The notes: generated by a model from the letters alone, not told the origin. Positions 8,584-25,185 are shown, counted from the stretch's first letter. The stretch: 55,892 bases of DNA from Acidobacteriota bacterium (GCA_013152895.1 JAADFN010000032.1:1-55892); one strand, 5' to 3'. Translations and numbers: made by a program.

Positions 8584-9792
8584 TCAGACCAGATCGCGGG
8601 GGGCCTCGGGAGGTTTGACCGGGACGTAGAAGCCCGACGAATCATCGGGTCCCTTGATGGGCGCTATGGCACGAAGAACGAGTCTCACGAGGTCGCTTTG
8701 GCGCCCGGCGCCGGTCTTGCGGAAGATGTTCGAGAGCTGGGAATGCACCGTGTTTCTCGAAAGACCGAGCGTGTTGGCCGCTTCGGTCAGGTTCTTCCCG
8801 GCAAGAAGCTCCATGACGAGCCGCACTTCGGCCCCGGTGAGGCCAAAGAGGTCCCGCACGAGATGGTCGACGGGAGTGTGGAATCTCTCCGGATCCGTGA
8901 TGAACAGGATGGCGATGATGGAGCCTTCCGTCATGGGCTGGCAGCTTCGAGGAAGCGGGAGAACAACGACCTGGTAGTCGGATCGGCCCGACGGCCTGGG
9001 GAGCCGGAGAGCTCTTCCCGCGGGTTGCTCCGCTCGCGACCGGGTTCCGCTCGCCTCGCGGATAGTGGCTCGAAGCGTCGTGGTATCGCTGTGGCTGGCT
9101 GCGGCGGGTCCGTCCTCGCGGATGGTGAACCCGTCGTTGTTCCTGCTGATGCGGCGTGCCTCGCGGTTGACCAGCAAGGGACGGCCCTGCCCATCCATCA
9201 GAACGACGCCCGTGGCCATGCGATCGAGGGCGCCAGCCGTGACGTCCGACAGTCGCTCCGCTCGCAGGATTCGGCGTTGAACGGTGACCGCCCGGGCCAT
9301 GTGGGGAAACAGCTCGCGGAGGGTCTGACGCTCCAGCTCCGTGAACGGCGTAGAATCCGTCCCGCGGGCGATCCAGAGAGCCGCGTACAGATCTCGTTCT
9401 GCGAGGAACGCCGCTCCCGCGGCCTCGACGAGCCCCGCAGGCTGCAAGAGGCGCTGAAAAACCGTGGATTTCAGGAACTCCCGTCCCCGAAAGACGACCC
9501 TGGTTGAGAGAACCATCTTGAGAGGGCGGCGCCGTGCCTCCATGACGAGCTCATCGCCGTTCATGTGGCGCTCGTTATACGCGCTGACGACCTCTTCCGG
9601 GAATCCTGTGAATGCGCTGATCCGAACCGTGTTCGTGAGGGGGTCGGTGCAGTGCAGCCATACGGCAGCCGATCCAAGGATCTCCCGCATTGCCACCAAC
9701 GCCTCGTTCCAACGGCCGGGCTTCGTTGCGGCCTCGTAGATGAGCGGGATGACCGAGGCGATCTCGGCGGCATCGTTCATGCGAACCACCAT
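8584..9792 (-). CDS. LuxR-family HTH transcriptional regulator with GAF/PAS-like input domains
   Basis: IYEAATKPGRW N-terminus, GVVLMDGQGRPLLVNREA (PAS-like), FGLTGAEVRLV..EAANTLGLSRNTVHSQLSNIFRKTG..RQSDLV (LuxR HTH). Confidence 0.9.
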   Translation of the reverse strand: MVVRMNDAAEIASVIPLIYEAATKPGRWNEALVAMREILGSAAVWLHCTDPLTNTVRISAFTGFPEEVVSAYNERHMNGDELVMEARRRPLKMVLSTRVVFRGREFLKSTVFQRLLQPAGLVEAAGAAFLAERDLYAALWIARGTDSTPFTELERQTLRELFPHMARAVTVQRRILRAERLSDVTAGALDRMATGVVLMDGQGRPLLVNREARRISRNNDGFTIREDGPAAASHSDTTTLRATIREASGTRSRAEQPAGRALRLPRPSGRSDYQVVVLPLPRSCQPMTEGSIIAILFITDPERFHTPVDHLVRDLFGLTGAEVRLVMELLAGKNLTEAANTLGLSRNTVHSQLSNIFRKTGAGRQSDLVRLVLRAIAPIKGPDDSSGFYVPVKPPEAPRDLV

Positions 9793-10156: not shown

Positions 10157-10203
10157 AGTGGAATCATCCCCAACTCGCGGGCGGGGCTGTGGAACAATCC
10201 CCA
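10157..10203. promoter_or_regulatory. Paired 16-bp dyad sites (putative sigma54-activator enhancer), pair 1
   Basis: AGTGGAATCATCCCCA (10157-10172) and TGTGGAACAATCCCCA (10188-10203), 31-bp period, ~75-120 bp upstream of a sigma54 motif. Confidence 0.7.
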
Positions 10204-10277
10204 CACACCACCCCTGGTGCAGCTGCACAATCCAGCGTTGCCGGCGCCGTTGCGGCTTTCACAACCTTGAAGACGGT

Positions 10278-10293
10278 TGGCACGGTTCTTGTA
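10278..10293 (+). promoter_or_regulatory. Putative sigma54 (-24/-12) promoter
   Basis: TGGCACGGTTCTTGTA; consensus TGGCACG-N4-TTGC with one mismatch at -12. Confidence 0.65.
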
Positions 10294-10355
10294 TTTCTAA
10301 TGAACGCTGTGTGGGTGCGAGCACTGAACATCCGAAAACCGGGGAGGTGAGAACA

Positions 10356-11084
10356 TTGTCACATTCCAGAGCGAGGCATCTGGTTCCGGTCCGGCTGGTA
10401 GGGATTCTTGGGGCGCTCGTTGTCGTGGCATCCGCCGGCGTCGTCATCGGTGCCAGCATCATCGGTTCAAAACACGATCTCTCCACGACGGGTGGCGACC
10501 CATACTCCGACCGGGTCTGCGTTTTCTGCCACACTCCTCACCACGCCAACGACACCCTGCCCATTCAGGCGCCGTTGTGGAACCGGTTCATCGACACCAA
10601 CGAGACCTTTACCGTGTACACAAGCCCGACCATGGACACCACTCCGGGCAATCCAAATACGACGGTTTCCATGCTGTGCCTCGGCTGCCACGACGGGACC
10701 AATGGCACGGCGGTGGTCAACGGCATCACCGGGAGCACCAAGCACGACCTGATCAATGCGCCCGGCCCGGGGGGGATCCCGGACACGACGTCGGAGCCCA
10801 ACTGTCGGCGCTGTCACGGCCAGATGTACGGCGACCCGCCGGCGGTCTGGCAGGGAACGGATCTTTCCAACGACCATCCTATCGCCATGACCTACCCCAC
10901 CTCGGCGCAGGATCCAATGTTCAACACGCCGCCAGATCTCAATACCGGATGGGCTCTGGTTCCCCTCTACAACGGGAAGGTGGAGTGTCCGACCTGCCAC
11001 GATGTCCACAATCCGGCCAATACGCCTTTCCTCCGCATGCCGAACGATGGCAGTCAGCTCTGTGTCACCTGCCACATCAAGTGA
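10356..11084 (+). CDS. OmcE-like multiheme cytochrome c, pentaheme variant
   Basis: Signal peptide, SKHDLS, CVFCHTPH, PLWNR, CLGCHDG, extra CRRCH, GTDLSNDHP, ECPTCH, PFLR, GSQLCVTCHIK; TTG start 8 nt after GGAGG. Confidence 0.85.
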   Translation: MSHSRARHLVPVRLVGILGALVVVASAGVVIGASIIGSKHDLSTTGGDPYSDRVCVFCHTPHHANDTLPIQAPLWNRFIDTNETFTVYTSPTMDTTPGNPNTTVSMLCLGCHDGTNGTAVVNGITGSTKHDLINAPGPGGIPDTTSEPNCRRCHGQMYGDPPAVWQGTDLSNDHPIAMTYPTSAQDPMFNTPPDLNTGWALVPLYNGKVECPTCHDVHNPANTPFLRMPNDGSQLCVTCHIK

Positions 11085-12249
11085 TGATCTCGCGAAGCGG
11101 CTGGGCGGCGGGAAAGAGGTGCGCGACGCCAACGGTTGTTACCGTGAGGGTGAGCGCCTCTGCTATCCGCGGATCGAACTGGCTGCCCGCGCACGCCTCG
11201 ATCTCGGCCAGCGCTTCCTCGATCGTGCGACCCATCCGGTACGGCCGCGGCATCAGCATGGCGTCCAGGGCATCGGCCACCGCGATGATTCGGCTGTGAA
11301 GCGGAATCTCCTCGCCCCGCAGGCCGTCCGGATAGCCGCCGCCGCCGAAGCGCTCGTGGTGTCCCCGCACCACCGGCGCAAGGTCCGAAACCAGCGGGAT
11401 TTCCTCGAGCATCTCTGCTCCCACGACGGGATGTTGCTGGATCCGCAATCGTTCCGCCGCATCCAACGGCCCTGGCTTGCCGAGCACGCTCTCGGGGACA
11501 CCGATCTTGCCGATGTCATGAAGTGATGCGGCAACTTCCAGGCGCTCCAGGGGCGGGCGTTCGATTCCGAGTGTGCGCCCGATGTGGTGACACATATGTG
11601 CGACTCTCGCGGAGTGTCCCCGCGTCACGGCGTCCTTGGCCTCGAGCGCCGTGGCGAGCCCACGGATGATTCCCAGGTAGTTTCGCGCCTCCGCCTCACG
11701 GTAACGCCGGCAGCGCAGGCCCAGGGCCAGGTTCGTCGCGAGCGCCTCGATCACCAGCAAGTCCTCGGCCGCGAAAGCGTTGACCTCGGGGCTTGCCAGC
11801 GTCAGCACGCCAAGAAGCTCACCGTCGTGTTCGATGGGTACGCTGGCCGCGGACAGGCGACGGTACCCGAGAACCGACACCGGGCCGAAACGGCCGTCGG
11901 CCTCCACGTCGTTGACGACGACCATCTGGCGGGTGGTGGCCACCCATCCGGACAGCCCCTCGTGCAACCCGATGGTCGGCACATCGGGGAAGCACCCCGA
12001 AAGTCCCTGGCTCGCCATGAGCTCGAGAGCATTCCCCCCTGGCCTGAGTATGAAGAGCAGGCCAACGGGGCAGCCGATCTGAATGCAGGAGCTGGCAAGC
12101 GCCCGTTCGTAGGCCCTCGCCCCTTGCTCCAGGAGATGGTGGCCGGCCACGACCACCGAACGAAGCCGCCCGAGGGCGGTGCCGGTCGGTGCGTCTTCCT
12201 CCGGCGTTACAGCATTCCAAAACGCCTCGGCCTGCGAACTTTTTCCCAC
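11077..12249 (-). CDS. GAF + HD-GYP cyclic-dinucleotide phosphodiesterase
   Basis: GAF (GLSGWVA..VVNDVEADGRF), GHSARVA, LHDIGKIG, HHERFGGGGYPDGL, IIAVADALDAM; GTG start after GGAGGGGAG. Confidence 0.9.
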   Translation of the reverse strand: MGKSSQAEAFWNAVTPEEDAPTGTALGRLRSVVVAGHHLLEQGARAYERALASSCIQIGCPVGLLFILRPGGNALELMASQGLSGCFPDVPTIGLHEGLSGWVATTRQMVVVNDVEADGRFGPVSVLGYRRLSAASVPIEHDGELLGVLTLASPEVNAFAAEDLLVIEALATNLALGLRCRRYREAEARNYLGIIRGLATALEAKDAVTRGHSARVAHMCHHIGRTLGIERPPLERLEVAASLHDIGKIGVPESVLGKPGPLDAAERLRIQQHPVVGAEMLEEIPLVSDLAPVVRGHHERFGGGGYPDGLRGEEIPLHSRIIAVADALDAMLMPRPYRMGRTIEEALAEIEACAGSQFDPRIAEALTLTVTTVGVAHLFPAAQPLREIIT

Positions 12250-12332
12250 TACTCCCCTCCCGGGTGGTTGAAGATCCGCAGATGCGCCCTGTCTCCACCC
12301 TGTCTCCACGTCATAGCAGGAATCATGCCGGG

Positions 12333-15161
12333 TCAATGGCAACCACTCACCGTCGCACAGGAGAACCTCCTGTAATTCCGGCTGTTCGAGATGCTCCAGG
12401 AGTTAATCCGCGCCGTGTTCCCCCCGGCGTTGTAAGGGGCCGGATCGGACGTCAGGACGATGAGCGCCTTGCGGTGCCAGCCGTGGGGTACCGCGGAGTG
12501 ACACCACGCGCACTTGAAGGTATTGGGAAACGCCGCGGAGTGGGTCCCGTGCAGGTTGATATACCCTCCCATCCACCGGGAGAAACCGGTCTGGCCGGTG
12601 CTGCTGCTCTTTCCGGCATAGGTCTTGTAATCGTGACACTCGAAGCACAGGCCGTTGGGAGTGTTGATCCCGCTGCTCGCATCCCAGGGCTTTTTGAGCA
12701 CCGGTGCGTTCGCCGAACCGTGCGGGCCCTGGACGCCCGAAGAATCGTCGTTCCCGTGGCAGTCGGAGCACACCATGGGCGAGCTCTTGGTCCATGGCGA
12801 GCCCGCGACAAAGGTCATGTAACGGCTCGTGCTGTTGGTACGCGGCGTGTTGTTGGCCGTGGTCCAGTCAGGGGGTTGCGTCGCCGTCTGGTCAGTCATG
12901 ACCCAGTGGTAGGCGTCGTTATTGACGTTGAACTCCAGCGCCTGGTCGGTTTCGCCCGTCGGCAGCGAGGTTCCATAGGCAAAGGAGCTGTGGCACTTCA
13001 AGCAGATCTGGTACTCCGCCGACGCGGCCGCCGGGTGCGAGGTGAAATTCGCGGAGGTGAAAACGGACCACTCGTTTGGAAGAGAGGCCACGCCGACCCC
13101 CGTGGCGCCCGTCAGGGCTCCGGCCAGACCCGCCGAAGCCGGAGTGTGCAGGCCGGCCTGCGCCCGGTGCGTGTCGTGGCAGTCGAGGCAATTGACGTGC
13201 CGGTTCGCCCCGGAGAAGGTCCCGTCGTTGAAGGTCGCCCCTTCCTCGGCCACGGTATTGTGGACGGAATCGGCCTCCACCGGGTGGCTCGATGCCTTGG
13301 CGATCACGGTCGCCACGTCCTTCCCCGAAAGGTTGACTCCCGTGGTCCCGTTTCCGTGACAGTTGTAACAGATGAAGTCGGAGGCGTTTCCTGCTGGGTT
13401 GATCGATCCCGAAAGTAGATCTGGATAGTCGGAGAAGTGGACGGCCCCGAACGGGCTGGAAGAGGCATCCGGTCTGCCGTCGCCACGATCCGCGTGGCAC
13501 TTGGTGCAGTTGCGTTTGAACGTGGAGCCGTCGTGAATCGTGTAGGTCCACGTACCGTAGGCGTTGGAAGTGTAGTTGTGGGCCGAGGCGCTGAAGGCCG
13601 TCTTGTCGATGGTAGGCCTCCCCGAAGCCACGGCGTTCTTGTGGCAGGAGACGCACATCCCGCCGTTGGCTTGGCTGGCGTCAAAATCCGTCTGGGCAGG
13701 CGTCCCGGAGATGATCTCGCCGTTGACGTTCCGGCCCACCGCCCGGCTCGCCTGGGTCGAGGCATCCTGATGGACGTTGTAGTTGTGTGTGGTTCCACCG
13801 GGCGTGTTGTGCACGTGATCCGGGTGGCACATGTTGACGCAGGAACGATCGGCGGGCGCCACCGCCGAGAGCGGCGCCGTCCAGGCGACACCGCTGTCTG
13901 TGAAGCTGTCGTTGACACCCAGCACGGAGCCAATGGAATGCCGGCTGGTCTTGGCCGTCGTGCCATTCATGCCCTCCCAGATCGTCGCGTGGCACCCTGC
14001 GCAGTTTGTGCCGCCCTTGCTCTCCGTGGCTGCGAAGCCCCGATTGTGGGGATGGCAGTTGACGCAGCGCGTGCCAGCATTGTGGGTGTGATTGCCACTG
14101 GCGTTGTTCCGGTGGTACTTGGTTCGTGTATGACAGGCTTCGCAAATGCCGTCATCGTAAGGAGCCGGCGTCGGAGAGGTGACCCCGAGGTAGCTCCGGT
14201 TCGGATTCGTTCCCCCGGTCCTGTCGTCCTCCCAGAACGTGATGTCCTTGGGACCGCTCGAGGGCGTCTCGATCGTTCCCCGGATCAGGTAGATGTTGAG
14301 CGTCCTGTGGGGCGTATGGCAGGTGAGACAGTCCACGGCCCAGTTGCCGTACTTGGTCCCCGTGAATTGGCTCGAATGGGTCGCCAGGTTGTGGCAGTCC
14401 ACGCAGAGCTCGGAGCCATTCGTACGCCGGAGGAGCTGCCCGCTGCCCGCCGGCCGCGTCCCATTGTTTCTCACCGAGACGCCCCGGACCGCGCGGGCGA
14501 CGTTGCCCGCTGCATCGGTGACCTCGACGGTGATCTCGTGCCAACCCCGCGCCAGGGCCGTCAGGTCAACGTTGAACTCCCATACCGAGCAGTTGGTTCC
14601 GCAGTCGTAGTTGGAGTTGACGGTCGCCGTCGTCGATGGTGCTCCCCCATCCACGTACCAGGCGAGCGGCGTGGCCGCAAGACCCCCCTCATCCCACACC
14701 TGGACCTTGACCCGCTCCGTGCCGCCGACCACCGCCCCCTGCGCGGGCACGAGGATGAGGACCGTCGGCGCGACGGTGTCCGCGCCACACGAGGGAAGGG
14801 TGAACGGCCCCAGCACCTCGGGGTTCGAACCGGAGACACCATCGGGATCGCTGAATGTCACGCGTACCCAGTAGCTCTGGCCCGCGGTCAGGCCGGGAAC
14901 CAGACACTGGCGCGGAGAGCCGCCGGAAAGTGCGCTACAGGCCACCGTTCCGGGCCAGCTATTCGCCGTGTTGTACTCCACCTGCGTGGCGCCATCACCG
15001 TTGTCGTCTCCCGTGAATCTGGACGTCACCGTCAACTCCGAGCAGGAAGACACCAGAACGTCGGACCCGACGACAACCGTATTGTTGCCAGCGAACGCGA
15101 TCATGGGAACAGCCAGGATCATGGCGAGGAACGGTCCCGTCAACGTACGTCGAAGCATCAT
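12333..15161 (-). CDS. Large secreted multiheme cytochrome c (13 CXXCH + CX3CH + CX5CH) with N-terminal FN3/Ig-like domains
   Basis: Signal peptide; DTVAPTVLI..P, GWHEITVEVTDAAGN (Ig-like); manual motif count; ATGA overlap with the upstream ORF stop. Confidence 0.9.
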   Translation of the reverse strand: MMLRRTLTGPFLAMILAVPMIAFAGNNTVVVGSDVLVSSCSELTVTSRFTGDDNGDGATQVEYNTANSWPGTVACSALSGGSPRQCLVPGLTAGQSYWVRVTFSDPDGVSGSNPEVLGPFTLPSCGADTVAPTVLILVPAQGAVVGGTERVKVQVWDEGGLAATPLAWYVDGGAPSTTATVNSNYDCGTNCSVWEFNVDLTALARGWHEITVEVTDAAGNVARAVRGVSVRNNGTRPAGSGQLLRRTNGSELCVDCHNLATHSSQFTGTKYGNWAVDCLTCHTPHRTLNIYLIRGTIETPSSGPKDITFWEDDRTGGTNPNRSYLGVTSPTPAPYDDGICEACHTRTKYHRNNASGNHTHNAGTRCVNCHPHNRGFAATESKGGTNCAGCHATIWEGMNGTTAKTSRHSIGSVLGVNDSFTDSGVAWTAPLSAVAPADRSCVNMCHPDHVHNTPGGTTHNYNVHQDASTQASRAVGRNVNGEIISGTPAQTDFDASQANGGMCVSCHKNAVASGRPTIDKTAFSASAHNYTSNAYGTWTYTIHDGSTFKRNCTKCHADRGDGRPDASSSPFGAVHFSDYPDLLSGSINPAGNASDFICYNCHGNGTTGVNLSGKDVATVIAKASSHPVEADSVHNTVAEEGATFNDGTFSGANRHVNCLDCHDTHRAQAGLHTPASAGLAGALTGATGVGVASLPNEWSVFTSANFTSHPAAASAEYQICLKCHSSFAYGTSLPTGETDQALEFNVNNDAYHWVMTDQTATQPPDWTTANNTPRTNSTSRYMTFVAGSPWTKSSPMVCSDCHGNDDSSGVQGPHGSANAPVLKKPWDASSGINTPNGLCFECHDYKTYAGKSSSTGQTGFSRWMGGYINLHGTHSAAFPNTFKCAWCHSAVPHGWHRKALIVLTSDPAPYNAGGNTARINSWSISNSRNYRRFSCATVSGCH

Positions 15162-18100
15162 GGCCCGTCCTCCGTGAAGGTATTGCTGTCGGCGTAATGA
15201 ACCCCGTGGCACGTCAGGCACTGGACACGGCCCCCGGCATCCAGGCGAAGGTTATCGGAGCTCACACCGTCCCCTCCGCCTCCCCCCTGGACGGCGCCGT
15301 TCCCGTCGAGGGGCACCGAGCGGTCGTATCCCCGCCCGTTGGCATTGAGGGCCACGCCGACCGGATGACTCTTCCATTTCCAGTCGAAGACCTCAACCTC
15401 GTTGTAATCCATGGTCCAGAGGGAATGACAGTCACGACAGAACTTGTCGCCGCTGGTATTGTCGCCCTGATCCAGGGGCGCGCGGAGGAAGGGATACGAC
15501 GCCGAAAACCGCCAGCGCTCTCCCAGGACGAAGGTCCCACCGGAGAAGGTTACCGTCAGGCCGTTGTCCAGGGGGACGCCGGTGCCGATGTCCGCTTCAC
15601 CGGCCCAGGTGGAGCCGCCGTCCTTGGAGTACCGAAAGTGGGCATTGGCGATGGTGATCTCGATCAGGTAGGACGAGCCCCCCGCACCGGTGTACGTCCC
15701 GCCCACGGTAACCTGCCCCGTACTGCCCAGGGAGGTGATGCGTTCCGGCGGTGACACGCGGAGTTGGCCGCGGTTGCTGGCCCTGGCCTTGTGCTGATCG
15801 TGGCATGTGGAGCAGACGACGTTGCCATTCATGATCCGTTTGACCATCTCGGGATTTGTTGGCATCTGGGCGCCCCACTGGGACGCATCGACCGGAACAT
15901 CGAAACGGTGCGTCGTTCCCGCCTGGCCCGGCACGGCCCTGTCCGACGAGTTGATGGGCAGAGCGGACGCAAGCCCGCCGGGGCTGTGACATGACTGACA
16001 GAGGTTAACGTTCCCGGCCGAGGTCGTCAGCGAGCCGCCCGCCGCATGGTGCCCCGTGTGGCATGAGGCGCAGTCGATGCCGAAGTACCAGTGAGGCGGG
16101 TCCACGGCCTGGACGGTCGCGGTCCCGGCGAGAAAGACGCCGATGAACACCAAGACCAGCGTGCGGCGCCGGAGAGCTGCCCACCCGGCAAGAGCGAGCA
16201 GCATCGCCATGAGGGCAAGGCCCCAGGGACCCACGGTGGGGATGCTTGCCGCCTGTCCGCCTTCGCCCGAGAGCGTGGCCGTCACCGGACCACCGGACGA
16301 CGTGCTCTCGACGGTCAGAGTCGCTTCCATGTGGCCCGTGGCATCCGGTGAGAACCGGACCTCCAGGGTGCAGGACTCCCCCGGCCCGATGGTGGCGCCG
16401 GTACACGGGTCGGCGACGAGAACGAACTGGGCGGCGTCCTCACCACCGATCTGAACGCTCGTCACGTCCAGAAAACCACCGCCGGCGTTGGAGAGCGTCA
16501 GGGTCCCCGGACCGCTGCTGTGACCCACAGCTACCGTTCCGAAATCCAGGCTGCCTGGCGACAGCTGCGCCAGGGCCGCGGGCGCCGCGATACCCCTCGC
16601 CTGAAGCGCGACCGTCTGGGAACCCTCTCCGCTGCACTGGAAGCTCAGGTCTCCCGCCACCCGGCCGGACCGGACCGGATCGAAAACAACCGTGGCGGTG
16701 CAGCTTTCACCGGGCGCAAGTCCATCGCCGCAGGTGGTCTGCGTCTCGAAGGCGGCGGGCCAATGGATACCGTAGATCCCCACGGGGACAGGACCCGTAT
16801 TGGTCAACTTGACAACGCGGGGTTCGCTCGTCTGTCCCACGGTGACATCTCCAAAGTCAAGAAGCGCCGGACTGGCTTCGGCCTGGGGAACCTCGGCTTC
16901 GGTGCCATCGAGCCGGAAGATCTGGACGCTGGAGGAATTGACAGAAGCTATCGCGAGACGTGGCGGGTTCTCCAGCACGGCAAGCCCCATGGGAGTGTGA
17001 AAACGCCCGGACTCGTCCCCGTACGTCCCCAGGCTTTCCCGGAAGCTGCCGTCGGCGTTGAAGGTCTGGATCCAGCTCTGGAAGGCGTCGGAAACGTACA
17101 GCACGTTCCCCGGTCCCACGGCGACACCGGCGGCCCGCGTCAGCTCTCCTTGACCATTGCCGAGGGAAGAAATGCTCTTGAGAAAGTTCCCCGCAGGATC
17201 GAAAACGAGGACCTGGCCGAGCACGGCGTCAGCCACCAGAACCTCTCCCGCGGGCGACCAGGCCAGCGCCACCGGTTCGCGAAATTCGCCGGAATTCTTC
17301 CCGCGCCGGCCGAAGGTGGCGGTAACGGTGCCCGACCCGTCGAAGGAAACCACCCGGCCAGTGGCGCCGTACAGGACCCAGATCCGATGGCCGGCCTGGT
17401 CGATCGCCACGTCGGTGACGGGACCGAGGGGAGCCCCAGGATCGAGACTACTCAGGATGCTGCCCGTGGCGGACAGCAGAAGCAGTCCTGTCCGGGTTCC
17501 CACCACGAGCCGGCCGAGCCAGTCCCCGGCCACGGAGGTGACGCCAGGGACCCGAACGGTTCCCAGAAACTCGCCCGTAACCGGGTTCACGAAATCCAGC
17601 CCGTCCACGGCCGCATCTGTCACCGCAAGGTCGCCCCACTCGTTGACACCGACGTCGAACGGAGCGGCCAGACCGCTGTCCAACGCCGTCTCCGCTACGG
17701 CGTTCGAGATGGTGAAATCCAACGTCTTGGAGGAGCTGTTGCCGCTTGGATCGCTGGCGGTGCACGTGACGGTTTCCCGTCCCGGAGCGGCCGGCGCGTG
17801 ATACGTGGCGGCGCCGCCGGAGCCGGGCGACACCGTGCCAAGGGCCGCAGACCAGCTGAAGGTAACGGGATCCCCCTGCGGATCTACCGCAGTCGCCTGC
17901 AACTGGGCGTTGCCGTCGACCAGAACCGGGTCATGGTCGACGGTCAGCGAGGTGATCACCGGCTCCTGGCCGGCGGTTGCGCTCACCTTGATCACGACCT
18001 GGGCGCTGGTGGTCTGACGGCCCCCGCACAAGGAGGTTCCGCTGTCAGCGAGTGTGATCGTCACGGTGACCGTTCCCTCCGTGGACGGCGCCCTCCAGAC

Positions 18101-18436
18101 GGCCGAGGCGGAGTATGGCGAGCCGCTGACCCCGTTGTCGATACTGTCGAAGGAGCCGAGGGATGCGTCCCACTGGGTCAAGTCCGCCCGGATGACCTGG
18201 CCACACCCGGTGGTGCAGGTGCCGGGACAATCGGGATCGTGGGCATCGACGGCGAGCGATACGGTTTCACCGGGTTTCACAACGGATGGCGTGGCCGTGA
18301 AGGTATCAATCACCGGTTCGGCCGCTGGGAGGACGGTCGCTCCGGCCACCATCAGCGCTCCGGCAAGCAGAATGCGAAGATGGGGAATAATCCCCAAATC
18401 TCCGCCCTTACCGGTGATGATTCCCCAGCATTCCAC
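15158..18436 (-). CDS. Composite surface protein: Ig-like + NHL propeller + two ASH/choice-of-anchor-D-like domains + internal IPTL-CTERM + second signal peptide + pentaheme cytochrome c
   Basis: NHL blades (GEFREPVALA, GRFHTPMGLAV), LDFGDVTVG..L.NTG repeats, IPTVGPWGLALMAMLLALAGWAALRRR, then CASCH, CQSCH, CSTCH, CRDCH, CLTCH; GTG start after GGAGGGAGGG (start uncertain). Confidence 0.85.
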   Translation of the reverse strand: MECWGIITGKGGDLGIIPHLRILLAGALMVAGATVLPAAEPVIDTFTATPSVVKPGETVSLAVDAHDPDCPGTCTTGCGQVIRADLTQWDASLGSFDSIDNGVSGSPYSASAVWRAPSTEGTVTVTITLADSGTSLCGGRQTTSAQVVIKVSATAGQEPVITSLTVDHDPVLVDGNAQLQATAVDPQGDPVTFSWSAALGTVSPGSGGAATYHAPAAPGRETVTCTASDPSGNSSSKTLDFTISNAVAETALDSGLAAPFDVGVNEWGDLAVTDAAVDGLDFVNPVTGEFLGTVRVPGVTSVAGDWLGRLVVGTRTGLLLLSATGSILSSLDPGAPLGPVTDVAIDQAGHRIWVLYGATGRVVSFDGSGTVTATFGRRGKNSGEFREPVALAWSPAGEVLVADAVLGQVLVFDPAGNFLKSISSLGNGQGELTRAAGVAVGPGNVLYVSDAFQSWIQTFNADGSFRESLGTYGDESGRFHTPMGLAVLENPPRLAIASVNSSSVQIFRLDGTEAEVPQAEASPALLDFGDVTVGQTSEPRVVKLTNTGPVPVGIYGIHWPAAFETQTTCGDGLAPGESCTATVVFDPVRSGRVAGDLSFQCSGEGSQTVALQARGIAAPAALAQLSPGSLDFGTVAVGHSSGPGTLTLSNAGGGFLDVTSVQIGGEDAAQFVLVADPCTGATIGPGESCTLEVRFSPDATGHMEATLTVESTSSGGPVTATLSGEGGQAASIPTVGPWGLALMAMLLALAGWAALRRRTLVLVFIGVFLAGTATVQAVDPPHWYFGIDCASCHTGHHAAGGSLTTSAGNVNLCQSCHSPGGLASALPINSSDRAVPGQAGTTHRFDVPVDASQWGAQMPTNPEMVKRIMNGNVVCSTCHDQHKARASNRGQLRVSPPERITSLGSTGQVTVGGTYTGAGGSSYLIEITIANAHFRYSKDGGSTWAGEADIGTGVPLDNGLTVTFSGGTFVLGERWRFSASYPFLRAPLDQGDNTSGDKFCRDCHSLWTMDYNEVEVFDWKWKSHPVGVALNANGRGYDRSVPLDGNGAVQGGGGGDGVSSDNLRLDAGGRVQCLTCHGVHYADSNTFTEDGP
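18381..18427. promoter_or_regulatory. Paired 16-bp dyad sites, pair 2
   Basis: TGGGGAATAATCCCCA (18381-18396) and CGGTGATGATTCCCCA (18412-18427), 31-bp period, near the divergent promoter region. Confidence 0.65.
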
Positions 18437-18465
18437 GATTCGTTCCCTCCCTCCAAATATACCTG

Positions 18466-18481
18466 AGCAAGAACCATTCCG
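18466..18481 (-). promoter_or_regulatory. Putative sigma54 promoter for the leftward cytochrome operon
   Basis: Minus strand CGGAATGGTTCTTGCT, GG-N10-GC with TTGC, 30 bp before the GTG start. Confidence 0.55.
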
Positions 18482-18613
18482 CCAACGGGGCTTCGCGCGG
18501 TGGCGGCGCCAAGAAGGCGCGAGATCGTCTCGCCCCTGAGAACACGCCTCGTTCATGTACCGCAAAGACCACGTGAGCTGCGATACAATCAACGCGCCGG
18601 GGAGGGTCCACGA

Positions 18614-20104
18614 GTGTCATCCGAGCCGTCCGCAACGAGCCACCGCTTCCGATTGCCATGGTCCCCGCGGACCTTGCTGATCCTGGTGCCCCTGCACCTC
18701 GTGGCCTTCCTGCTCCTGTACGTGGCCGTGCTGCACCTCGTCGTTCACGAGGTCGCCATGACGTACGAGGCGGAGAGCGGAGCGTTGCTCAACGCGGCCG
18801 TCAGCAAAATCCACTCCTCCATGGTGTGCTCGCAAGGAGGCGGCCTGCACGAACGGCTGGGGGACTTGATGGTATCTCACGAGATCCTGGGGCTTTCCGT
18901 CTTCAACGCATCGGGGCACCCCGGTTCTCCCGTCAGGCCGCCCAACCCCAGGGTATCGGCCTTTCTCGCCACTGACGCCGACGAGAATGTCCGCATCGAC
19001 AAGAACGGGGGAAAGACCACGCTGATCGCCATGGCGCGAATCCGGGCGACGAGCGAGTGCAAGCCGTGCCACATCCCGGGAGCGACCATCGGCGCGCTGA
19101 TGGTCACCCGGGATATCAGCGACGCCTTGAGTGCGACACGCCGCCGCACGGGGATCGGTCTCGCCTTGCTGATCGGGGGCTGGGCCGGACTCGTGGTCGT
19201 GGTCAACTTCGCCACGAAACGTTTCGCCACGGCGTCCGTTGACGCCCTCAAAGCCAGGGTGGCGGCAGAGCCCCCCAGTGCGGCGCCCACGACCGGCGTG
19301 CGGCTGGGCATGGACTCCCTGTCCCACGAGCTCTACCGGAGCCTGGAGAGCACGCTTCGCGAACACCGCAAGGAGCGCGCCGCCATGGAGAGCCGTTTCG
19401 AAAACGCCGAGCGGCTGGCCAGCATGGGGCAGCTCGCTGCGGGACTCGCTCACGAGATCAAGAACCCGGTGGCGGGCGTCCAGGGTGCCCTCGAGCTTCT
19501 CGTCGAGGAGTGCCACAACGACGATCGGATCGACCTCTACCAGCGCATGCTCGACGAGCTGAGGCGGGTGAACGAGACACTTCATTCACTGCTCCACTTC
19601 GCCCGTCCCCGGAAACCCCAGCGCCTCTCGACCGACATTCCGCTCCTCCTCAAAGACATCGCCGACCTTGCCCGGCCCGGGCTTTCCCGCCGGGGCATTA
19701 CCCTGAGCATCCGGGTGGATGAACGCGTGCGGACCTTCATCCTCGATCCGGGCCAGATTCGCCAGGTCGTCGTCAACTTGATCACCAACGCTGCGGACGC
19801 CATCGGTAGCTCGGGGAGCATCAAGCTCCTTGCAACGCCCTTCCCGGAAGGGAATGGAATGATCCTGGCCGTGGTGGACGACGGTCACGGCATGGACGAG
19901 GAGACTCTCAAGGCGGTGTTCGAGCCATTCTTCACCACCAAGCTGCACGGAACGGGGCTCGGACTGGCGGTCGCCCAGAAAATCGTCGAGAAGCACGGTG
20001 GGAGCATCCAGATTACCTCGGCGCCGGGAGAGGGGACGACGGTCTTCCTGCTGTTCCCCGATCCGGGCGAGGAGATTTCGTACAGCGGTGGAACGGAGGC
20101 CTGA
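18614..20104 (+). CDS. Membrane sensor histidine kinase with a periplasmic CXXCH (heme c) sensor domain
   Basis: Two TM segments flanking ECKPCH; H-box LAHEIKNP, N-box NLITNAADA, DDGHGM, FEPFFTTK, GTGLGL; GGAGGG RBS before GTG. Confidence 0.92.
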   Translation: MSSEPSATSHRFRLPWSPRTLLILVPLHLVAFLLLYVAVLHLVVHEVAMTYEAESGALLNAAVSKIHSSMVCSQGGGLHERLGDLMVSHEILGLSVFNASGHPGSPVRPPNPRVSAFLATDADENVRIDKNGGKTTLIAMARIRATSECKPCHIPGATIGALMVTRDISDALSATRRRTGIGLALLIGGWAGLVVVVNFATKRFATASVDALKARVAAEPPSAAPTTGVRLGMDSLSHELYRSLESTLREHRKERAAMESRFENAERLASMGQLAAGLAHEIKNPVAGVQGALELLVEECHNDDRIDLYQRMLDELRRVNETLHSLLHFARPRKPQRLSTDIPLLLKDIADLARPGLSRRGITLSIRVDERVRTFILDPGQIRQVVVNLITNAADAIGSSGSIKLLATPFPEGNGMILAVVDDGHGMDEETLKAVFEPFFTTKLHGTGLGLAVAQKIVEKHGGSIQITSAPGEGTTVFLLFPDPGEEISYSGGTEA

Positions 20105-20107
20105 GCC

Positions 20108-21466
20108 ATGGCATTGATTCTGCTCGTGGAGGACGAAGAGCTGCTCAGGTGGGCGCTGAAAAAGAGGCTTGCCAAGGCGGGACATGCCATCGACGAGGCG
20201 GGCTCCCTGGCCGAGGCGGCCGATCACCTCAAGCGTCGCCAGCCGGACCTGATGTTGCTCGATCTGGCACTCCCGGATGGCCATGGGCTCGATTTCTTCG
20301 AGGATCACCAGGCCGACCTGGAAAGTACCGTCACGATCATCATGACGGCCGTTGGCGAAGTGGAAGATGCCGTTCGCGCCATGAAGCTTGGCGCCTTCGA
20401 CTTCCTCTCGAAACCCGTAGATACCACCGAGCTCCTCAAGCTCATCGACCGCTCTTTGGCCCGCCGGCAGGAGTGTCTCACCGCCCAGGTCGCCCGCCGT
20501 GAGCAGGAGACCCGGACGAGCACCGATATCGTGGCACATTCGGCCGTGTTCAAGAAAGTACTGAACATCGCCTGCCAGGTCGCCCAGTCCCACGTCGACA
20601 CCATCCTGGTCCAGGGGGAGAGTGGCACCGGGAAGAACGTGGTCGCACGCTATATCCACGCGGTTTCGCAACGCCGGGACAAGCCGCTCCTCGAGATCAA
20701 CTGTGCTGCGCTTCCCGATCACCTGGTAGAGAGCGAGCTCTTCGGCCATGAACGGGGGGCATTTACCGATGCCAAGACGAGCAAGAAGGGAACCCTCGAG
20801 CTGGCCGCGACCGGCTGCCTCGTCCTCGACGAGATCAGTGAGCTGAAGCTCGAAGTCCAGGCCAAGCTCTTGCAGTTCCTGGAATCCAGGGTTTTCCGGC
20901 GTGTTGGCGGACTGCGGGAAATCCACGTGGAAACGCGCGTGATCGCCTTGACGAACCAGGACCTCCGGGAAATGGTGGCGGAGGGCAGGTTCCGGGCGGA
21001 TCTCTACTACCGGCTCGCCGTTTTCCCCATCACCGTTCCGCCCTTGCGGGAGCGCCACGAGGACGTTCTCCCGCTCGCATGGGCCTTTCTCCGGAAGTTA
21101 CAACCGGCGCTCGGACGCCGTTTCAACGGACTGACACGGGAGGCCGAAAACCTGTTGCTGGGGTACTCGTGGCCCGGCAACGTCCGCGAGCTGCGCAACG
21201 TGGTGGAGCGGGCAATGATTCTCGAAAAGGGCCCAGAGATCACCCCTTCGTCCCTGATCCTCGATCCGGAAACCGGGGCGCCCGCGCCTTCGGGCAGAAC
21301 CGAACCCCTGGCGGGGATCGTCCCCCTCGAAACCGCCGAACGAGAGCTCGTCCGGAGGGCCATGCGGGCGACGGGAGGCAACCAGACACGCGCGGCCGAG
21401 CTCCTGGGAATCACGCGGGATCAGCTCCGCTACCGGCTCAAGCGCTTTCCCGAGGCCAGCGAGTAA
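20108..21466 (+). CDS. NtrC-family sigma54-dependent response regulator
   Basis: REC (VEDE, LLDLALPDG, SKP), GESGTGK, ESELFGHERGAFTDA, FRADLYYRL, WPGNVRELRN, Fis-type HTH (GNQTRAAELLGI). Confidence 0.96.
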   Translation: MALILLVEDEELLRWALKKRLAKAGHAIDEAGSLAEAADHLKRRQPDLMLLDLALPDGHGLDFFEDHQADLESTVTIIMTAVGEVEDAVRAMKLGAFDFLSKPVDTTELLKLIDRSLARRQECLTAQVARREQETRTSTDIVAHSAVFKKVLNIACQVAQSHVDTILVQGESGTGKNVVARYIHAVSQRRDKPLLEINCAALPDHLVESELFGHERGAFTDAKTSKKGTLELAATGCLVLDEISELKLEVQAKLLQFLESRVFRRVGGLREIHVETRVIALTNQDLREMVAEGRFRADLYYRLAVFPITVPPLRERHEDVLPLAWAFLRKLQPALGRRFNGLTREAENLLLGYSWPGNVRELRNVVERAMILEKGPEITPSSLILDPETGAPAPSGRTEPLAGIVPLETAERELVRRAMRATGGNQTRAAELLGITRDQLRYRLKRFPEASE

Positions 21467-21472
21467 CCCACG

Positions 21473-21488
21473 TGGCACGATCCTTGCT
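21473..21488 (+). promoter_or_regulatory. Sigma54 promoter
   Basis: TGGCACGATCCTTGCT, perfect -24/-12 consensus in the gap right after the regulator stop. Confidence 0.85.
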
Positions 21489-21511
21489 GATGCTGCAGTG
21501 CAGGTGGAACG

Positions 21512-21898
21512 ATGCGGATCGCGATTCTCGACTGCTCGCCGTTGACGGCGTGGACCATTGTACGGCTGTTGCCTCCGAATGTGGATTACGACGTGCTGCC
21601 CTCCTTCGAAGAGGCACATCGCGTGCTCTGCGAGGCCCCGCCGGACGCGGTCCTCATCGGTCTGACCGCCGGCCGGTTGCCGTGGGAGGACCTCCTCGAG
21701 CTCTGCAGGTCCAACCATCCGGAGATTCCCTACCTTCTCTACTATTCCCTCAACGCTCTCCCGCCGGGAGAGCCCGTGCCGCAGGCGGTGGCCAACGCCG
21801 CCGTTTCGCCCGTGGAGATCGCGGAGCTGAGGCTGGCCGTTCGGGGCCTTCTCGATCGCGCCAGGTCCCAGGATCGTGCCACACGATCGCCAGGGTAG
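21512..21898 (+). CDS. Stand-alone degenerate (pseudo-)receiver domain protein
   Basis: MRIAILD..SFEEAHRVL....PDAVLIGL..HPEIPYLL follows the REC pattern, with Gly at the phospho-Asp position. Confidence 0.6.
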   Translation: MRIAILDCSPLTAWTIVRLLPPNVDYDVLPSFEEAHRVLCEAPPDAVLIGLTAGRLPWEDLLELCRSNHPEIPYLLYYSLNALPPGEPVPQAVANAAVSPVEIAELRLAVRGLLDRARSQDRATRSPG

Positions 21899-21929
21899 GC
21901 ATCGTTTGTTTCCCAGAGGAGGCCGAACA

Positions 21930-23681
21930 GTGTTGAAGCAGATTGCCCGAATCGGTTCCATAATGCTGGTTGCCGTTGGCGTCTCCGTCCCCGTTGCGAT
22001 TGCGGGCCACCATCCGCAGCTCGTCTCGGTTCAAGCCTCGAAGTGCACAAACTGCCACGGCGACCTCCTGCGGGGCATGGTCTCCGTTCACCCTCCCGCC
22101 AAGGAGGACTGCACGAACTGTCACGACGTGCAGATTACTGCCACGAGCACGACGATCGGGCTCAACGAGAAGGAACCTGCCCTCTGCCTGGAGTGCCACG
22201 ACGGCCTCCAAAAGGCCGTCGACGGAAAGCTGGCGAGCCCCCATCCGCCGGTCGGCGACTCGTGCCTCAACTGCCATTCGCCCCACGCAAGCGCCAACAA
22301 ACACCTCCTCAACGAGGCCATTCCCGCCCTGTGCCTCGCCTGCCACGATCTCGATGAGCTTCAACCGAAGCACGGAGGGCAGCTCACAGAAGACGTCAAT
22401 TGTCTCGCCTGCCACTCCCCCCACGGCAGCGATGCGCCCAACATGTTGCGCGCCAAGCACCAGCATCCACCCTTCGGTGCGGGAGAGTGCGACGCCTGCC
22501 ACCGCAAACCGTTCGCGGGCCGCGTCAGGCTGCGCGCGTTCGGCGCCAAGGTGTGCACCGCATGCCACGGAGAAATCATCAATCCCAAGGCCGTCAGTAT
22601 CCATCCCGCCCTCGACCGCCGGCGGAACCGGAAGGTCTGCGTCGCCTGCCACGACCCGCACATGAGCGACAATCCTTCGCTCCTGATCGTCACCGGCCCC
22701 GACCTTTGCAAGAAGTGCCATCCAGGTATCGTCAAGGCTGCTCGCGCCGACACGGGTCATCCGGCCGCTTCCGAGGATTGCACCAACTGCCACAAGCCTC
22801 ACGACGCGTCCCAGCCCAACCTCCTGACCGAAGCCACGCCGGCTCTCTGCCTGGAGTGCCACGATGCCGATGACGCCCAGCTTCGCAAGGCGCACCTCGG
22901 CGCGGATATGACCACCCTGCCGTGTGTCAGCTGCCACACGCCCCACGGTGACGGCAACAAGTACCTCCTGGCGAAGACCGTCCATCCGCCCGTGCTCGAT
23001 GGCTGCGACACCTGTCACGAGGGGGCGTACAACAAGCTGATGGACGACGGGGGCTCCGCCCTCTGCCTGGAGTGCCACGACGATATCGGCGAAGAGGCCA
23101 AGAAGGCCAAGTTCCCCCACCCGGCGATGGAAATGGCCGAGTGCACCGATTGCCACAACCCCCACGCTAGCGCCCAGGACCACCTGGTGAAGGAACCGTC
23201 CGGCAAGGAGTGCCTGGCGTGCCACGACGACATCGGGCCGGGCAAGAACGAGGTGGCCCACGGCGTGATCACGCTGATCGGGTGCCGGGTCTGTCACGAG
23301 CCCCACGGGGGTTCCAGGCCGCACCTCCTGCGCATGGATCCGGACGCGCTGTGTCTCAGCTGCCATGACGCCAAGCACTCGCCACCCCCGAATTCCACGA
23401 AGCCGGTCAAGGTGCTCGGTCAGTTCGAGATACCCGCCGAGATCGCCCGGGTCATGGCATCTCTCAGACTCAGCCCCGACGGAACCCGGGACCACCCCGT
23501 GACCAACCACCGTGTGCTGGGAACGCCGAGCAAGAAGGAGCTCAAGCGCAACGATGCACACTTCAAGGGAGAGCTCCACTGTCTCACCTGCCACAATCCC
23601 CACAAGGGGGCGTCGCGCCTGCTGCTCCGCTGGGGAGCCGCCAACTCGTACCAGGCCTGTGCCCACTGTCATCCCAAGTGA
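21930..23681 (+). CDS. Periplasmic high-molecular-weight cytochrome c with 21 CXXCH motifs (doubled-CXXCH repeats)
   Basis: Signal peptide; 21 CXXCH by manual count in ~583 aa; recurring HxP..CxxCHxPHxS...LL....LCxxCH; GGAGG RBS. Confidence 0.93.
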   Translation: MLKQIARIGSIMLVAVGVSVPVAIAGHHPQLVSVQASKCTNCHGDLLRGMVSVHPPAKEDCTNCHDVQITATSTTIGLNEKEPALCLECHDGLQKAVDGKLASPHPPVGDSCLNCHSPHASANKHLLNEAIPALCLACHDLDELQPKHGGQLTEDVNCLACHSPHGSDAPNMLRAKHQHPPFGAGECDACHRKPFAGRVRLRAFGAKVCTACHGEIINPKAVSIHPALDRRRNRKVCVACHDPHMSDNPSLLIVTGPDLCKKCHPGIVKAARADTGHPAASEDCTNCHKPHDASQPNLLTEATPALCLECHDADDAQLRKAHLGADMTTLPCVSCHTPHGDGNKYLLAKTVHPPVLDGCDTCHEGAYNKLMDDGGSALCLECHDDIGEEAKKAKFPHPAMEMAECTDCHNPHASAQDHLVKEPSGKECLACHDDIGPGKNEVAHGVITLIGCRVCHEPHGGSRPHLLRMDPDALCLSCHDAKHSPPPNSTKPVKVLGQFEIPAEIARVMASLRLSPDGTRDHPVTNHRVLGTPSKKELKRNDAHFKGELHCLTCHNPHKGASRLLLRWGAANSYQACAHCHPK

Positions 23682-23699
23682 TTCGGAGGCATCTGATCC

Positions 23700-24759
23700 A
23701 TGAACCGACTCATCTTCCCTATTCTCGCCCTGGCGCTGGCCGCCGGGACCATCGGCTGTACCACCATTCCCAAGGCGGAGCCCACGCAAACCAAGAGCCG
23801 TGAGCAGAAATACGCCGCGTACGTGTGGCCCCCGCCCCCCGACCAGCCCCGTATCCGGCTCGTGGACATTCTGCACAGCCGCCTCGACGTGGAACCCAGC
23901 TCGCACTTCGAGAGAGTGCTTCTCGGTTCGAGCCCCCACAGCCCGTGGGACTTCCTCAAGAAGCCCTTCGGGGTCGCCATCGACAGCCACGACCGTATCC
24001 TGGTGACCGACCCCGGGACTGGCGCCCTGGTGCGTTTCGACCGGGCCGGCCGCAAGATGGACGTCATCGGCGTCAAGGGACCGGTCCGCCTCAAGGTCCC
24101 GCTCGGCGTCTCCATCGGACCCGACGGAACCATCTACGTGGCGGATGCAGGCCTGACCAAGGTCGTGGCCTTTTCCCCGAAGGGCAAGCTGGTGAAGGTT
24201 TACGGCCACGAGGGTGAGCTGCTCAACCCCACGGATGCGGTCGTATCCCCGGATGGGACCAAGCTCTACGTGACCGACTCCAAGGCCCACAAGGTCGTGG
24301 TATTCAACGTGGCCAACGGCAAGATCGTCATGAGCTTCGGTTCCCGGGGCACCGAGCCGGGCCAGTTCAACTTTCCGACGGCCCTGGCCTTCTCGCCCGA
24401 CGGCGATCTCTTCGTCGTGGACCAGATGAACTCCCGGGTCCAGGTGTTTACCGGTGATGGCGATGTCCTGGAGACTTTCGGCGCCCTGGGCGTCGGTTTC
24501 GGAAACTTCGTCCGGCCCAAGGCCGTGGCCGTCAACCACGACGGCCTGGTCTTCGTCACCGACGCCGCGTTTGGCAACGTACAGATTTTCGATTCCGACC
24601 TGCGCCTGTTGACCTTCGTCGGTGAAAACGGCCACGGGCCGGGTCAGTTCCAGCTCCCCGCAGGCGTGGCGGTCCACGGGGAACCAGTTCGCCGTCGTGG
24701 ATCAGCTCAACAGGCGGGTTCAGCTCTTCCGCTTCATCAAGCCGAAGGGTGGGAAATAA
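23700..24759 (+). CDS. NHL-repeat beta-propeller lipoprotein, with an apparent 1-bp frameshift at GGGG 24678-24681
   Basis: Lipobox TIGC, WPPPPDQPRI, GQFNFPTALA, GNFVRPKAVAV; removing one G restores HGNQFAVVDQLNRRVQLFRFIKPKGGK-stop (TAA 24757-24759). Confidence 0.85.
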
Positions 24760-24796
24760 TCCCCACCAATCCGCGGGATGGTGGGCGTTTTCCCCA
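24750..24796. promoter_or_regulatory. Paired 16-bp dyad sites, pair 3
   Basis: TGGGAAATAATCCCCA (24750-24765) and GTGGGCGTTTTCCCCA (24781-24796), 31-bp period, upstream of the sigma54 promoter at 25170. Confidence 0.65.
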
Positions 24797-25169
24797 GGCC
24801 GGTTTTCCGGGTTCACACCGCAAGATGAGGAACGTGAGCCATGGACGGCGGCCCCGGGCGGGTGCAACGGACGCGAAACACGCACCAGGAACGCCTCCAG
24901 CCCGCGTCTCTCACGAACGTTCGTTGCGAGGCCATGGAGGCACCGATCAGCATGACGTTCCGACCAAGGTGGCGAAAAGCCCGCTCGTGGCACGTAATCA
25001 GCGCCACCGCCGCGAGAAACGCGGCTATGGCGGGCACATTCGCGGTCGCAGCAGGAAGCCGGCGAGCTTTGTGGGCCGGGGCCGTGCAAACAGCTCCTGC
25101 GCCGCGCTACCCGGGCGGTTGCGGCTCAGGCCCCCCTTCGGCATCGCCGGCCCCCCGATTCTGCGTGGC

Positions 25170-25185
25170 TGGCACGGAGGTTGCA
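25170..25185 (+). promoter_or_regulatory. Sigma54 promoter of the OmcE-like gene
   Basis: TGGCACGGAGGTTGCA, perfect consensus, 67 bp before ATG 25253. Confidence 0.85.

Follow-up and report, generated by a model that had tools for sequence, protein, structure and literature searches.

Paired dyads as predicted sigma54 enhancers of a small cytochrome regulon in an uncultured acidobacterial lineage

For organisms such as the uncultured Thermoanaerobaculia (Acidobacteriota), next to nothing is known of the way in which multihaem cytochrome clusters are turned on. A stretch of 55,892 nucleotides from an Acidobacteriota bacterium (GCA_013152895.1, JAADFN010000032.1:1-55892; hereafter the window, meaning the whole stretch, with coordinates counted from its first letter) poses this question in a concrete form. 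It carries cytochrome genes, sigma54-type promoters, a kinase-regulator couple, and three copies of a paired 16-bp dyad, and one may ask which protein reads these pairs and whether it does so to the same effect at each of them. The analysis presented here predicts, with good support, an enhancer and a small regulon made up of cytochrome genes. Its sole unusual conserved feature is that one of the pairs lies within the start of its own target gene.

The six sites and their period

The first-pass annotation had listed six 16-mers, at 10157/10188 (pair 1), 18381/18412 (pair 2), and 24750/24781 (pair 3); all six are present, all end in TCCCCA, and the 31-bp period reported for each pair is borne out in all three. 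The sites take the form TGnGGA-(A/T-rich N4)-TCCnCA in a 6+4+6 layout, and the best of them, site 2A, had been described as a near-palindrome when it is in fact a perfect 6+6 inverted repeat. The period corresponds to about three helical turns, so that the two dyads of a pair share one face of the helix. Read along the plus strand, the order of strong site A, site B, and promoter is common to all three regions, and the direction of the promoter alone differs.

The simplest alternative to a regulatory role is chance similarity, or a functionless short dispersed repeat. Short G/C-rich palindromes are indeed common; 10 of the 15 perfect dyads in 41 genomes fall outside the locus, and isolated perfect dyads occur on contigs G023:C157 and G037:C7, which we take to be chance occurrences because they lie in coding DNA with neither a partner nor a sigma54 promoter. 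The statistics of the genome under study (G000; an assembly of 2,993,163 bases in 221 contigs with a GC content of 0.65, both strands of which were scanned) speak against such an origin for the three pairs. The window has three matches to TCCCCA-N25-TCCCCA; 100 dinucleotide-preserving shuffles averaged 0.01 and never gave as many as three. TCCCCA itself has 1419 occurrences on the two strands of the assembly, and couples of it spaced by 31 bp number three in the entire assembly, all of them inside the window and on the plus strand, with every other spacing from 20 to 44 yielding 0-2 couples assembly-wide. The annotation's own check, a search for equally good 31-bp TCCCCA pairs elsewhere in the assembly, thus returned none. 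Genome-wide, TGGGGA-N4-TCCCCA has one perfect occurrence (site 2A), 10 with one mismatch, and 130 with two. A weight matrix built from 20 sites, all from genomes other than G000 and not fully independent because they were selected for dyad likeness, places sites 2A, 3A, 1B, and 1A as the top four in the G000 genome (scores of 26.0, 23.0, 21.6, and 19.2), with site 2B tied for sixth (18.1) and site 3B below 7; matrix pairs (one member at 12 or more, its partner at 8 or more, spacing 18-45 bp) are limited genome-wide to pairs 1 and 2, both at 31 bp. When windows of 167 bp around the three pairs are aligned, identity is confined to the two 16-mers. As only the two sites align among the regions, and their flanks are without homology, a duplicated segment or a dispersed or mobile repeat is excluded. 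With the positional conservation at a fixed period in many genera described below, these observations leave chance with next to no probability, and the comparative data already contradict it.

The 44 sites that we collected (41 distinct) yield the consensus TGGGGAATATTCCCCA; G2 and C13 never vary in them, and 43 of the 44 have C15. When one half-site departs from symmetry, the other mostly does not follow: 17 of the 44 sites are unpaired at position pair 3/14, and three show a symmetric C-G change there. Such one-sided departures point to the independent decay of two protein half-sites and not to an RNA helix. The dyads are very probably locus-specific, protein-binding regulatory sites.

The features of the locus are collected in Table 1. 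The gene map is based on Pfam, NCBIfam, and profiles of GC content by codon position, and the sigma54 promoters were called by a simple -24/-12 scan with our own rough weights. Transcription start sites are predicted, being taken 12 nt past the C of the -12 element, and every plus or minus position given here depends on that prediction.

Table 1. Coordinates of the dyads, promoters, and genes of the locus within the window
Feature	Position	Strand	Remarks
Site 1A, distal dyad AGTGGAATCATCCCCA	10157-10172	.	centre ~-139.5 from start of 10278 promoter; orthologous site in G005
Site 1B, proximal dyad TGTGGAACAATCCCCA	10188-10203	.	centre ~-108.5; counterparts in G005, G023, G033, G010, G056
Sigma54-type promoter TGGCACGGTTCTTGTA	10278-10293	+	-12 GT, not GC; same 16-mer in G005
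First small c-type cytochrome (doubled CXXCH)	10356-11084	+	predicted target of pair 1
Site 2A, perfect dyad TGGGGAATAATCCCCA	18381-18396	.	centre ~+67; codons ~14-19 of big gene
Site 2B CGGTGATGATTCCCCA	18412-18427	.	centre ~+36; codons ~4-9 of big gene
Sigma54-type promoter CGGAATGGTTCTTGCT	18466-18481	-	reads towards pair 2
Big gene, 1092-residue secreted multidomain protein	15158-18436	-	Ig-like, NHL/beta-propeller, IPTL-CTERM, midcut-by-XrtH segment, CXXCH
962-residue multihaem cytochrome	12333-15221	-	downstream of big gene, same strand, probable operon
Site 3A, strong dyad TGGGAAATAATCCCCA	24750-24765	.	centre ~-438 from start of 25170 promoter
Site 3B, weak, right half only GTGGGCGTTTTCCCCA	24781-24796	.	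centre ~-407
Perfect sigma54 promoter TGGCACGGAGGTTGCA	25170-25185	+	-24/-12 scan; ~375 bp from pair 3
Second small c-type cytochrome	25253-25921	+	predicted target of pair 3; paralogue of first, 36% identity
NtrC-family response regulator	20108-21466	+	proposed binder; REC, sigma54 AAA+ with GAFTDA loop, HTH_8
Sensor histidine kinase	18614-20104	+	CXXCH in periplasmic loop
TACAAT, -10-like box ahead of kinase gene	18584-18589	+	by eye in G000, G005, G023, G010, G002
Perfect sigma54 promoter TGGCACGATCCTTGCT	21473-21488	+	7 bp past regulator stop codon
DmsE-like multihaem cytochrome	21876-23681
NHL-repeat gene	23700-24759	+	frame change near 24670; stop TAA 24757-24759 in spacer of site 3A
LuxR-type gene	8584-9792	-
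GAF + HD-GYP (HD_5) gene	11077-12342	-	likely cyclic-di-GMP phosphodiesterase
PpiC/SurA-like gene and 592-residue gene (function unknown)	beyond second small cytochrome gene

Targets, relatives, and the candidate regulator

That each pair lies near a sigma54 motif serving a cytochrome gene, as had been proposed, holds for all three, with the qualification that the promoter belonging to pair 3 is about 375 bp away on the plus strand. The placement of pair 3 upstream of a minus-strand gene had to be abandoned, as this pair straddles the 3' end of the plus-strand NHL-repeat gene. Pair 1 is most likely an ordinary upstream enhancer, predicted to serve the first small cytochrome gene, and pair 3 is most likely another such enhancer, distant from its predicted target, the second small cytochrome gene, by about 400 bp. 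The elements expected of an NtrC-family enhancer, namely a cognate activator, rpoN, -24/-12 promoters within looping distance, and helically phased dyads, are all found here. With regard to upstream placement, pair 1 fits (~-108/-139), pair 3 is upstream but far (~-407/-438), and pair 2 is centred at ~+36/+67, all relative to the predicted starts.

A first search of 40 relatives gave orthologues of the regulator in 10, and across 119 genomes of the order they are found in 19, counting G000; G001, a genome of the same genus, yielded none. These orthologues share 53-90% identity, as against at most 47% for paralogues. In the regulator-bearing relatives, which span 10 or more genera, the motif is found again at each of the three places. 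At the place of pair 3, which lies between the NHL stop codon and the promoter of the small cytochrome, a strong dyad scoring at least 17 is present in 10 of 11 genomes, the eleventh, G073, having a weaker pair at exactly 31 bp; a sigma54 promoter is flagged downstream in 10 of the 11. Upstream of the orthologue of the first small cytochrome gene (the place of pair 1), six of seven genomes have a strong dyad and G011 has a weak one. At the start of the big gene (the place of pair 2), a dyad is seen in all eight genomes, with a partner at 31-32 bp in seven. The distance to the promoter at the places of pairs 1 and 3 varies from ~45 to 440 bp. Of all features, the spacing varies least among the relatives: among 27 anchor sites, 16 have a partner scoring at least 4 within 18-45 bp, ten of these partners being at 31 bp, three at 32 bp, and one each at 21, 24, and 29 bp. 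Several of the loci fall outside the training set of the matrix (G056, G058, G073, G077, G002, G014, G044, L041, and L042).

The motif also follows the regulator into other genomic settings. In L041 and L042, the regulator (61-65% identity) stands beside different cytochrome/beta-propeller genes, and dyad pairs 32 and 31 bp apart precede perfect sigma54 promoters. In genus g4 (L016:9364 of G004; G053 locus 9343), there are no orthologous cytochromes near the regulator. That genus keeps an extended palindrome, TGGGTAAAATCACCCA, at a distance of 230 bp upstream from a divergent sigma54 promoter that adjoins the kinase gene. Here, positions 5 and 12 of the dyad are changed symmetrically and the recognition helix of the regulator is unchanged. 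Covariation of half-site variants (TGCGGA in G010; TGGGTA in g4) with the recognition helix was likewise considered and rejected; as the helix is unchanged, the variants denote tolerated positions and add no evidence.

By architecture, the regulator belongs to the NtrC family, with Pfam matches to Sigma54_activat (5.6e-63), Response_reg (2.1e-25), and HTH_8 (9.4e-15), and its sequence carries GESGTGKN and ELFGHERGAFTDA. It falls short of every named equivalog (NtrC, AtoC, ZraR, FlbD, LuxO, and others), its best NCBIfam scores all being below their cut-offs: PEP_resp_reg 379/503, AtoC 371/714, ntrC 360/559, and FlbD 298/750 bits. The genome encodes rpoN (Sigma54_DBD, 216 bits, at G000:C172). 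The reading of the pairs as enhancer sites for this regulator is supported, with its binding deduced from co-occurrence, and we predict with good confidence that it binds all three. Among the DNA-binding proteins of the locus, it alone is conserved; its orthologues have an almost invariant HTH helix that differs from that of a paralogue, in line with the conserved motif; and in four of four further regulator-bearing cases a dyad scoring 19-21 lies upstream of the related cytochromes. A different transcription factor, encoded elsewhere, might instead bind the dyads, leaving other sites to the NtrC-type regulator. Such a factor could be sought among the NtrC-family paralogues of G000 (10 matches at E <= 1e-60), and the promoter at 21473, which stands beside the regulator gene itself without a dyad, is compatible with it, as is the fact that co-occurrence is what assigns the regulator to the sites. 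We consider this improbable, because the motif is limited to this locus in the genome, tracks the regulator orthologues despite differing targets, and is absent where the regulator is absent, and because the conserved recognition helix fits the conserved motif.

The kinase encoded just upstream of the regulator has a CKPCH motif at about residues 148-152, between two membrane segments, which is a haem-c motif; all 20 orthologous kinase segments that were retrieved, that of G000 among them, have a CXXCH (some of these loci may duplicate the genomes compared). Against Pfam, the loop gave no significant match, the best being Mcp40H-20_sensor at E = 0.008 and 16.9 bits versus a cut-off of 27. The kinase-regulator operon itself probably has an ordinary promoter, as suggested by the TACAAT box. 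From these elements, a mechanism may be proposed in which the haem-c kinase, probably sensing a redox or ligand signal, would phosphorylate the regulator, whose dimers would then fill the two dyads of a pair on one face of the helix, assemble an active AAA+ ring, and contact sigma54-RNA polymerase through DNA looping, with the ring opening the cytochrome-gene promoters. At the large cytochrome operon, pair 2 would serve the promoter from its transcribed side, through downstream activation, as a ceiling or brake, or as both depending on the state of the regulator. The locus would furnish a specific binding motif for an uncharacterised sigma54 two-component system in this uncultured lineage, along with a small regulon comprising four sigma54 promoters, the two small paralogous cytochromes, the large secreted cytochrome operon, and the DmsE-like multihaem cytochrome; with the motif as a probe, metagenomes could be searched for the same circuit.

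A pair of sites inside its own predicted target gene

Pair 2 occupies the stretch from codon 3 to codon 20 of the big gene, downstream of the minus-strand promoter, with its two sites 54 and 85 bp from the centre of that promoter on the transcribed side. The annotation's statement that the pair lies downstream of its own promoter and inside the start of the open reading frame was correct, and this arrangement is conserved, being retained across at least seven genera of Thermoanaerobaculia. The sequence GG-N8-TTGC stands at the position of the minus-strand promoter in all eight genomes; the centre of site A falls between +63.5 and +67.5 in seven of them, the single dyad of G073 being centred at +35.5. 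Six of the eight have kept the reading frame, a strong ribosome-binding site, and a start codon that precedes both sites; in G073 the start codon overlaps the single dyad, and the start region of G023 is ambiguous. Apart from the ribosome-binding site and the sigma54 promoter, the DNA around and between the sites cannot be aligned across the relatives. Because the spacer encodes different residues (I, K, R, F) and the half-sites do not change with it, and because the dyad of G000 uses A/T-ending codons in a genome where genes have a GC content at third codon positions of 0.73-0.88, it appears that the DNA site shaped the N-terminal extension of the signal peptide and not the reverse.

A fourth place for dyads was noticed in relatives, where the DmsE-like gene of G033 (L019:12625), G058, G073, and G077 has a start codon whose TG opens a single dyad, giving peptides such as M-G-R-I-P-H, M-R-I-I-A-H, and similar ones. 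A TATAAT-like box lies upstream of it in G058, G073, and G077, and a sigma54 promoter in G033.

Positions such as these raise the prospect of a role at the level of RNA or protein, either as a hairpin at the start codon that controls translation or as an N-terminal peptide of the form M-G-x-I-P-H. Site 2A would form a 6-bp hairpin in the predicted mRNA; the dyad begins at the TG of the start codon in five cases (the big gene of G073 and the DmsE-like genes of G033, G058, G073, and G077); and G-x-I-P is encoded by a self-complementary GGG...CCC. Yet pair 1 lies in untranscribed DNA upstream of its promoter and pair 3 on a stop codon, and a small minus-strand open reading frame that begins at pair 1 was rejected, its product being unconserved between G000 and G005 outside the sites. 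Moreover, the departures from symmetry are mostly uncompensated, and the fold of the 91-nt leader predicted for the big gene does not surpass that of shuffled sequences (z = -1.47; 15 of 200 as good). The occurrence of the 31-bp period in both coding and non-coding settings fits a DNA-bound protein, and we hold a role in the RNA or the peptide to be very improbable.

As for what a protein bound at pair 2 would do, a sigma54 promoter needs an activator to fire. No other dyad scoring at least 7 occurs from 18428 to 21311, which makes pair 2 the sole candidate activator site for the promoter at 18481-18466. The comparably short distances on the upstream side in G033 and G010 favour activation too, as do the downstream or 3' enhancers of Caulobacter flagellar promoters named in titles cited in PMC3096577. 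We mildly favour the view that pair 2 activates, alone or together with a ceiling effect. The stricter proposal, that it is a working enhancer embedded in the opening 20 codons of the gene that it serves and activates from a fixed +33/+64, is plausible, and we advance it tentatively. If it is true, RNA polymerase must transcribe through its own activator at pair 2, and the sites would have imposed an N-terminal extension (M-x-x-W/R-G-x-I-T ... L-G-x-I-P-H) on a secreted cytochrome signal peptide. Together with the haem-c kinase, this arrangement would represent a self-contained redox-sensing circuit for cytochromes of the kind associated with extracellular electron transfer. Pair 2 would then provide a natural test case for how near to a sigma54 promoter, and on which side of it, an activator can sit, and would also bear on whether one protein can both fire and limit a promoter.

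Several points have to be set on the other side of the balance when all three pairs are read as enhancers bound by this regulator. The genomes compared are kin, and since the sites outside G000 were chosen by dyad likeness, there is some circularity in the matrix and in the symmetry counts. Site 3B, scoring below 7, is weak and becomes credible only because relatives have a comparable second site 31-32 bp from the strong one. The perfect promoter at 21473 has no strong dyad near it in G000. The absence of a dyad scoring at least 10, and of a sigma54 promoter, upstream of related small cytochromes in all five regulator-less genomes is weak as a control when taken alone, because the five are of one genus and their cytochromes are more distant homologues (~42% identity). 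Pair 2 is on the transcribed side, unlike the usual upstream enhancer at ~80-150 bp, and the start-codon dyads of G058, G073, and G077 look like an operator and not an enhancer. Lastly, NtrC sites close in to glnAp2 are described as inhibitory in PMC5159524.

The points that concern pair 2 can be combined into a distinct proposal, namely that this pair, and the start-codon single dyads of the relatives, constitute a negative element, a roadblock or governor in which regulator dimers at +33/+64 would block or throttle transcription at the sigma54 promoter, and that only pairs 1 and 3 are enhancers. The tight position of site A in seven of the eight genomes, as against the variable distances elsewhere, is in keeping with this, as are the location of the start-codon dyads of G058, G073, and G077 downstream of TATAAT-like boxes and the case of FlbD, which is said, in titles cited in PMC3096577, to both activate and repress at its sites. 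We nevertheless judge it unlikely, albeit the most serious of the alternatives. The promoter needs an activator, for which no site but pair 2 is a candidate; the ribosome-binding site, start codon, and frame that lie between promoter and sites may be enough to account for the fixed spacing; and the sites at the place of pair 1 in G033 (~55/87 bp) and G010 (~45/77 bp) are so close to their promoters, albeit on the upstream side, that short distances are evidently used in this system.

Known systems, the promoter at 21473, and neighbouring genes

The NtrC recognition consensus differs from the dyad described here. In other respects, the closest likeness is to NtrC at glnAp2 of Escherichia coli: a REC + sigma54-AAA+ + Fis-type HTH activator is combined with a -24/-12 promoter and a strong site paired with a weaker one, and the centres of pair 1 at ~-139.5/-108.5 match the NtrC sites given as centred at -140 and -108 in PMC5159524. 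Modelling of glnAp2 in the same source holds that NtrC sites placed too close to the promoter cannot reach the polymerase and act negatively. Unlike at glnAp2, the targets here are multihaem cytochromes and not nitrogen assimilation genes, and one pair lies downstream and another ~400 bp upstream. At the flagellar sigma54 promoters of Caulobacter, FlbD and its ftr sites are placed on the transcribed or 3' side, with both activation and repression, according to titles cited in PMC3096577; pair 2 resembles them, as far as titles convey, in its position relative to a sigma54 promoter, on the transcribed side. What sets it apart is its place within the first 20 codons of its target at a fixed distance, and the regulator scores 298 against the FlbD cut-off of 750. 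For Nla28 and Nla6 of Myxococcus xanthus, tandem half-sites near sigma54 promoters and intragenic regulatory elements are reported in bioRxiv 10.1101/2021.11.28.470282, where the intragenic element is mainly the promoter, situated in the upstream gene, and the half-sites are 8-bp direct repeats upstream of the promoter. The locus described here, on the other hand, has inverted repeats of 16 bp, and its pair 2 lies past the promoter, within the regulated gene itself. The CXXCH in the periplasmic loop of the kinase recalls the sCache_haem and Geobacter chemoreceptor haem-c sensors, with a Pfam match that is only sub-threshold; a large family of extracytoplasmic CXXCH sensor domains fused to signalling modules is described in PMC12889525. 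Among the papers listed by full-text searches, as judged by titles and the beginnings of abstracts, none describes the motif or the system.

The promoter at 21473 is conserved in six genomes and drives an open reading frame of 128 residues without a family match, together with the DmsE-like cytochrome. A weak dyad-like match, CGGGGATCGTCCCCCT, lies about 160 bp upstream of it at 21312-21327, inside the regulator gene, with a score of 8.6-8.8. This match encodes G-I-V-P-L, which is kept in regulator orthologues and absent from a paralogue; codon coincidence may explain it, or it may be a site of low strength within the gene. The promoter may thus be served by the regulator from a distance, by way of the weak site in the regulator's own gene, or by another activator.

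Among the neighbouring genes, the LuxR-type gene upstream of pair 1 was rejected as a source of the binder, as it is not kept beside the orthologous targets. The GAF/HD-GYP gene intervenes between the cytochrome genes; it is kept in G023 and was undetected at that place in G010 and G005. In the big protein, the IPTL-CTERM and midcut-by-XrtH segments lie mid-protein, just ahead of the CXXCH region, which suggests that the protein may be cleaved in two by an exosortase-type system. In the region of pair 3, a minus-strand open reading frame (21750-24677) and the 3' part of a plus-strand one extending to 25256 were discarded for want of coding signal, the true gene ending at 24759. Relative to the continuous NHL genes of G005 and G023, that of G000 has a one-base frame change at ~24665-24675, with its last NHL repeat (..FAVVDQLNRRVQLFRF..) in the other frame; the frameshift may be genuine or may stem from an error in the assembly. 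In the interval that separates pair 3 from the promoter at 25170, there is a second, weaker sigma54-like match, TGGCACGTAATCAGCG, at 24988-25003, with CAGC at the -12 position.

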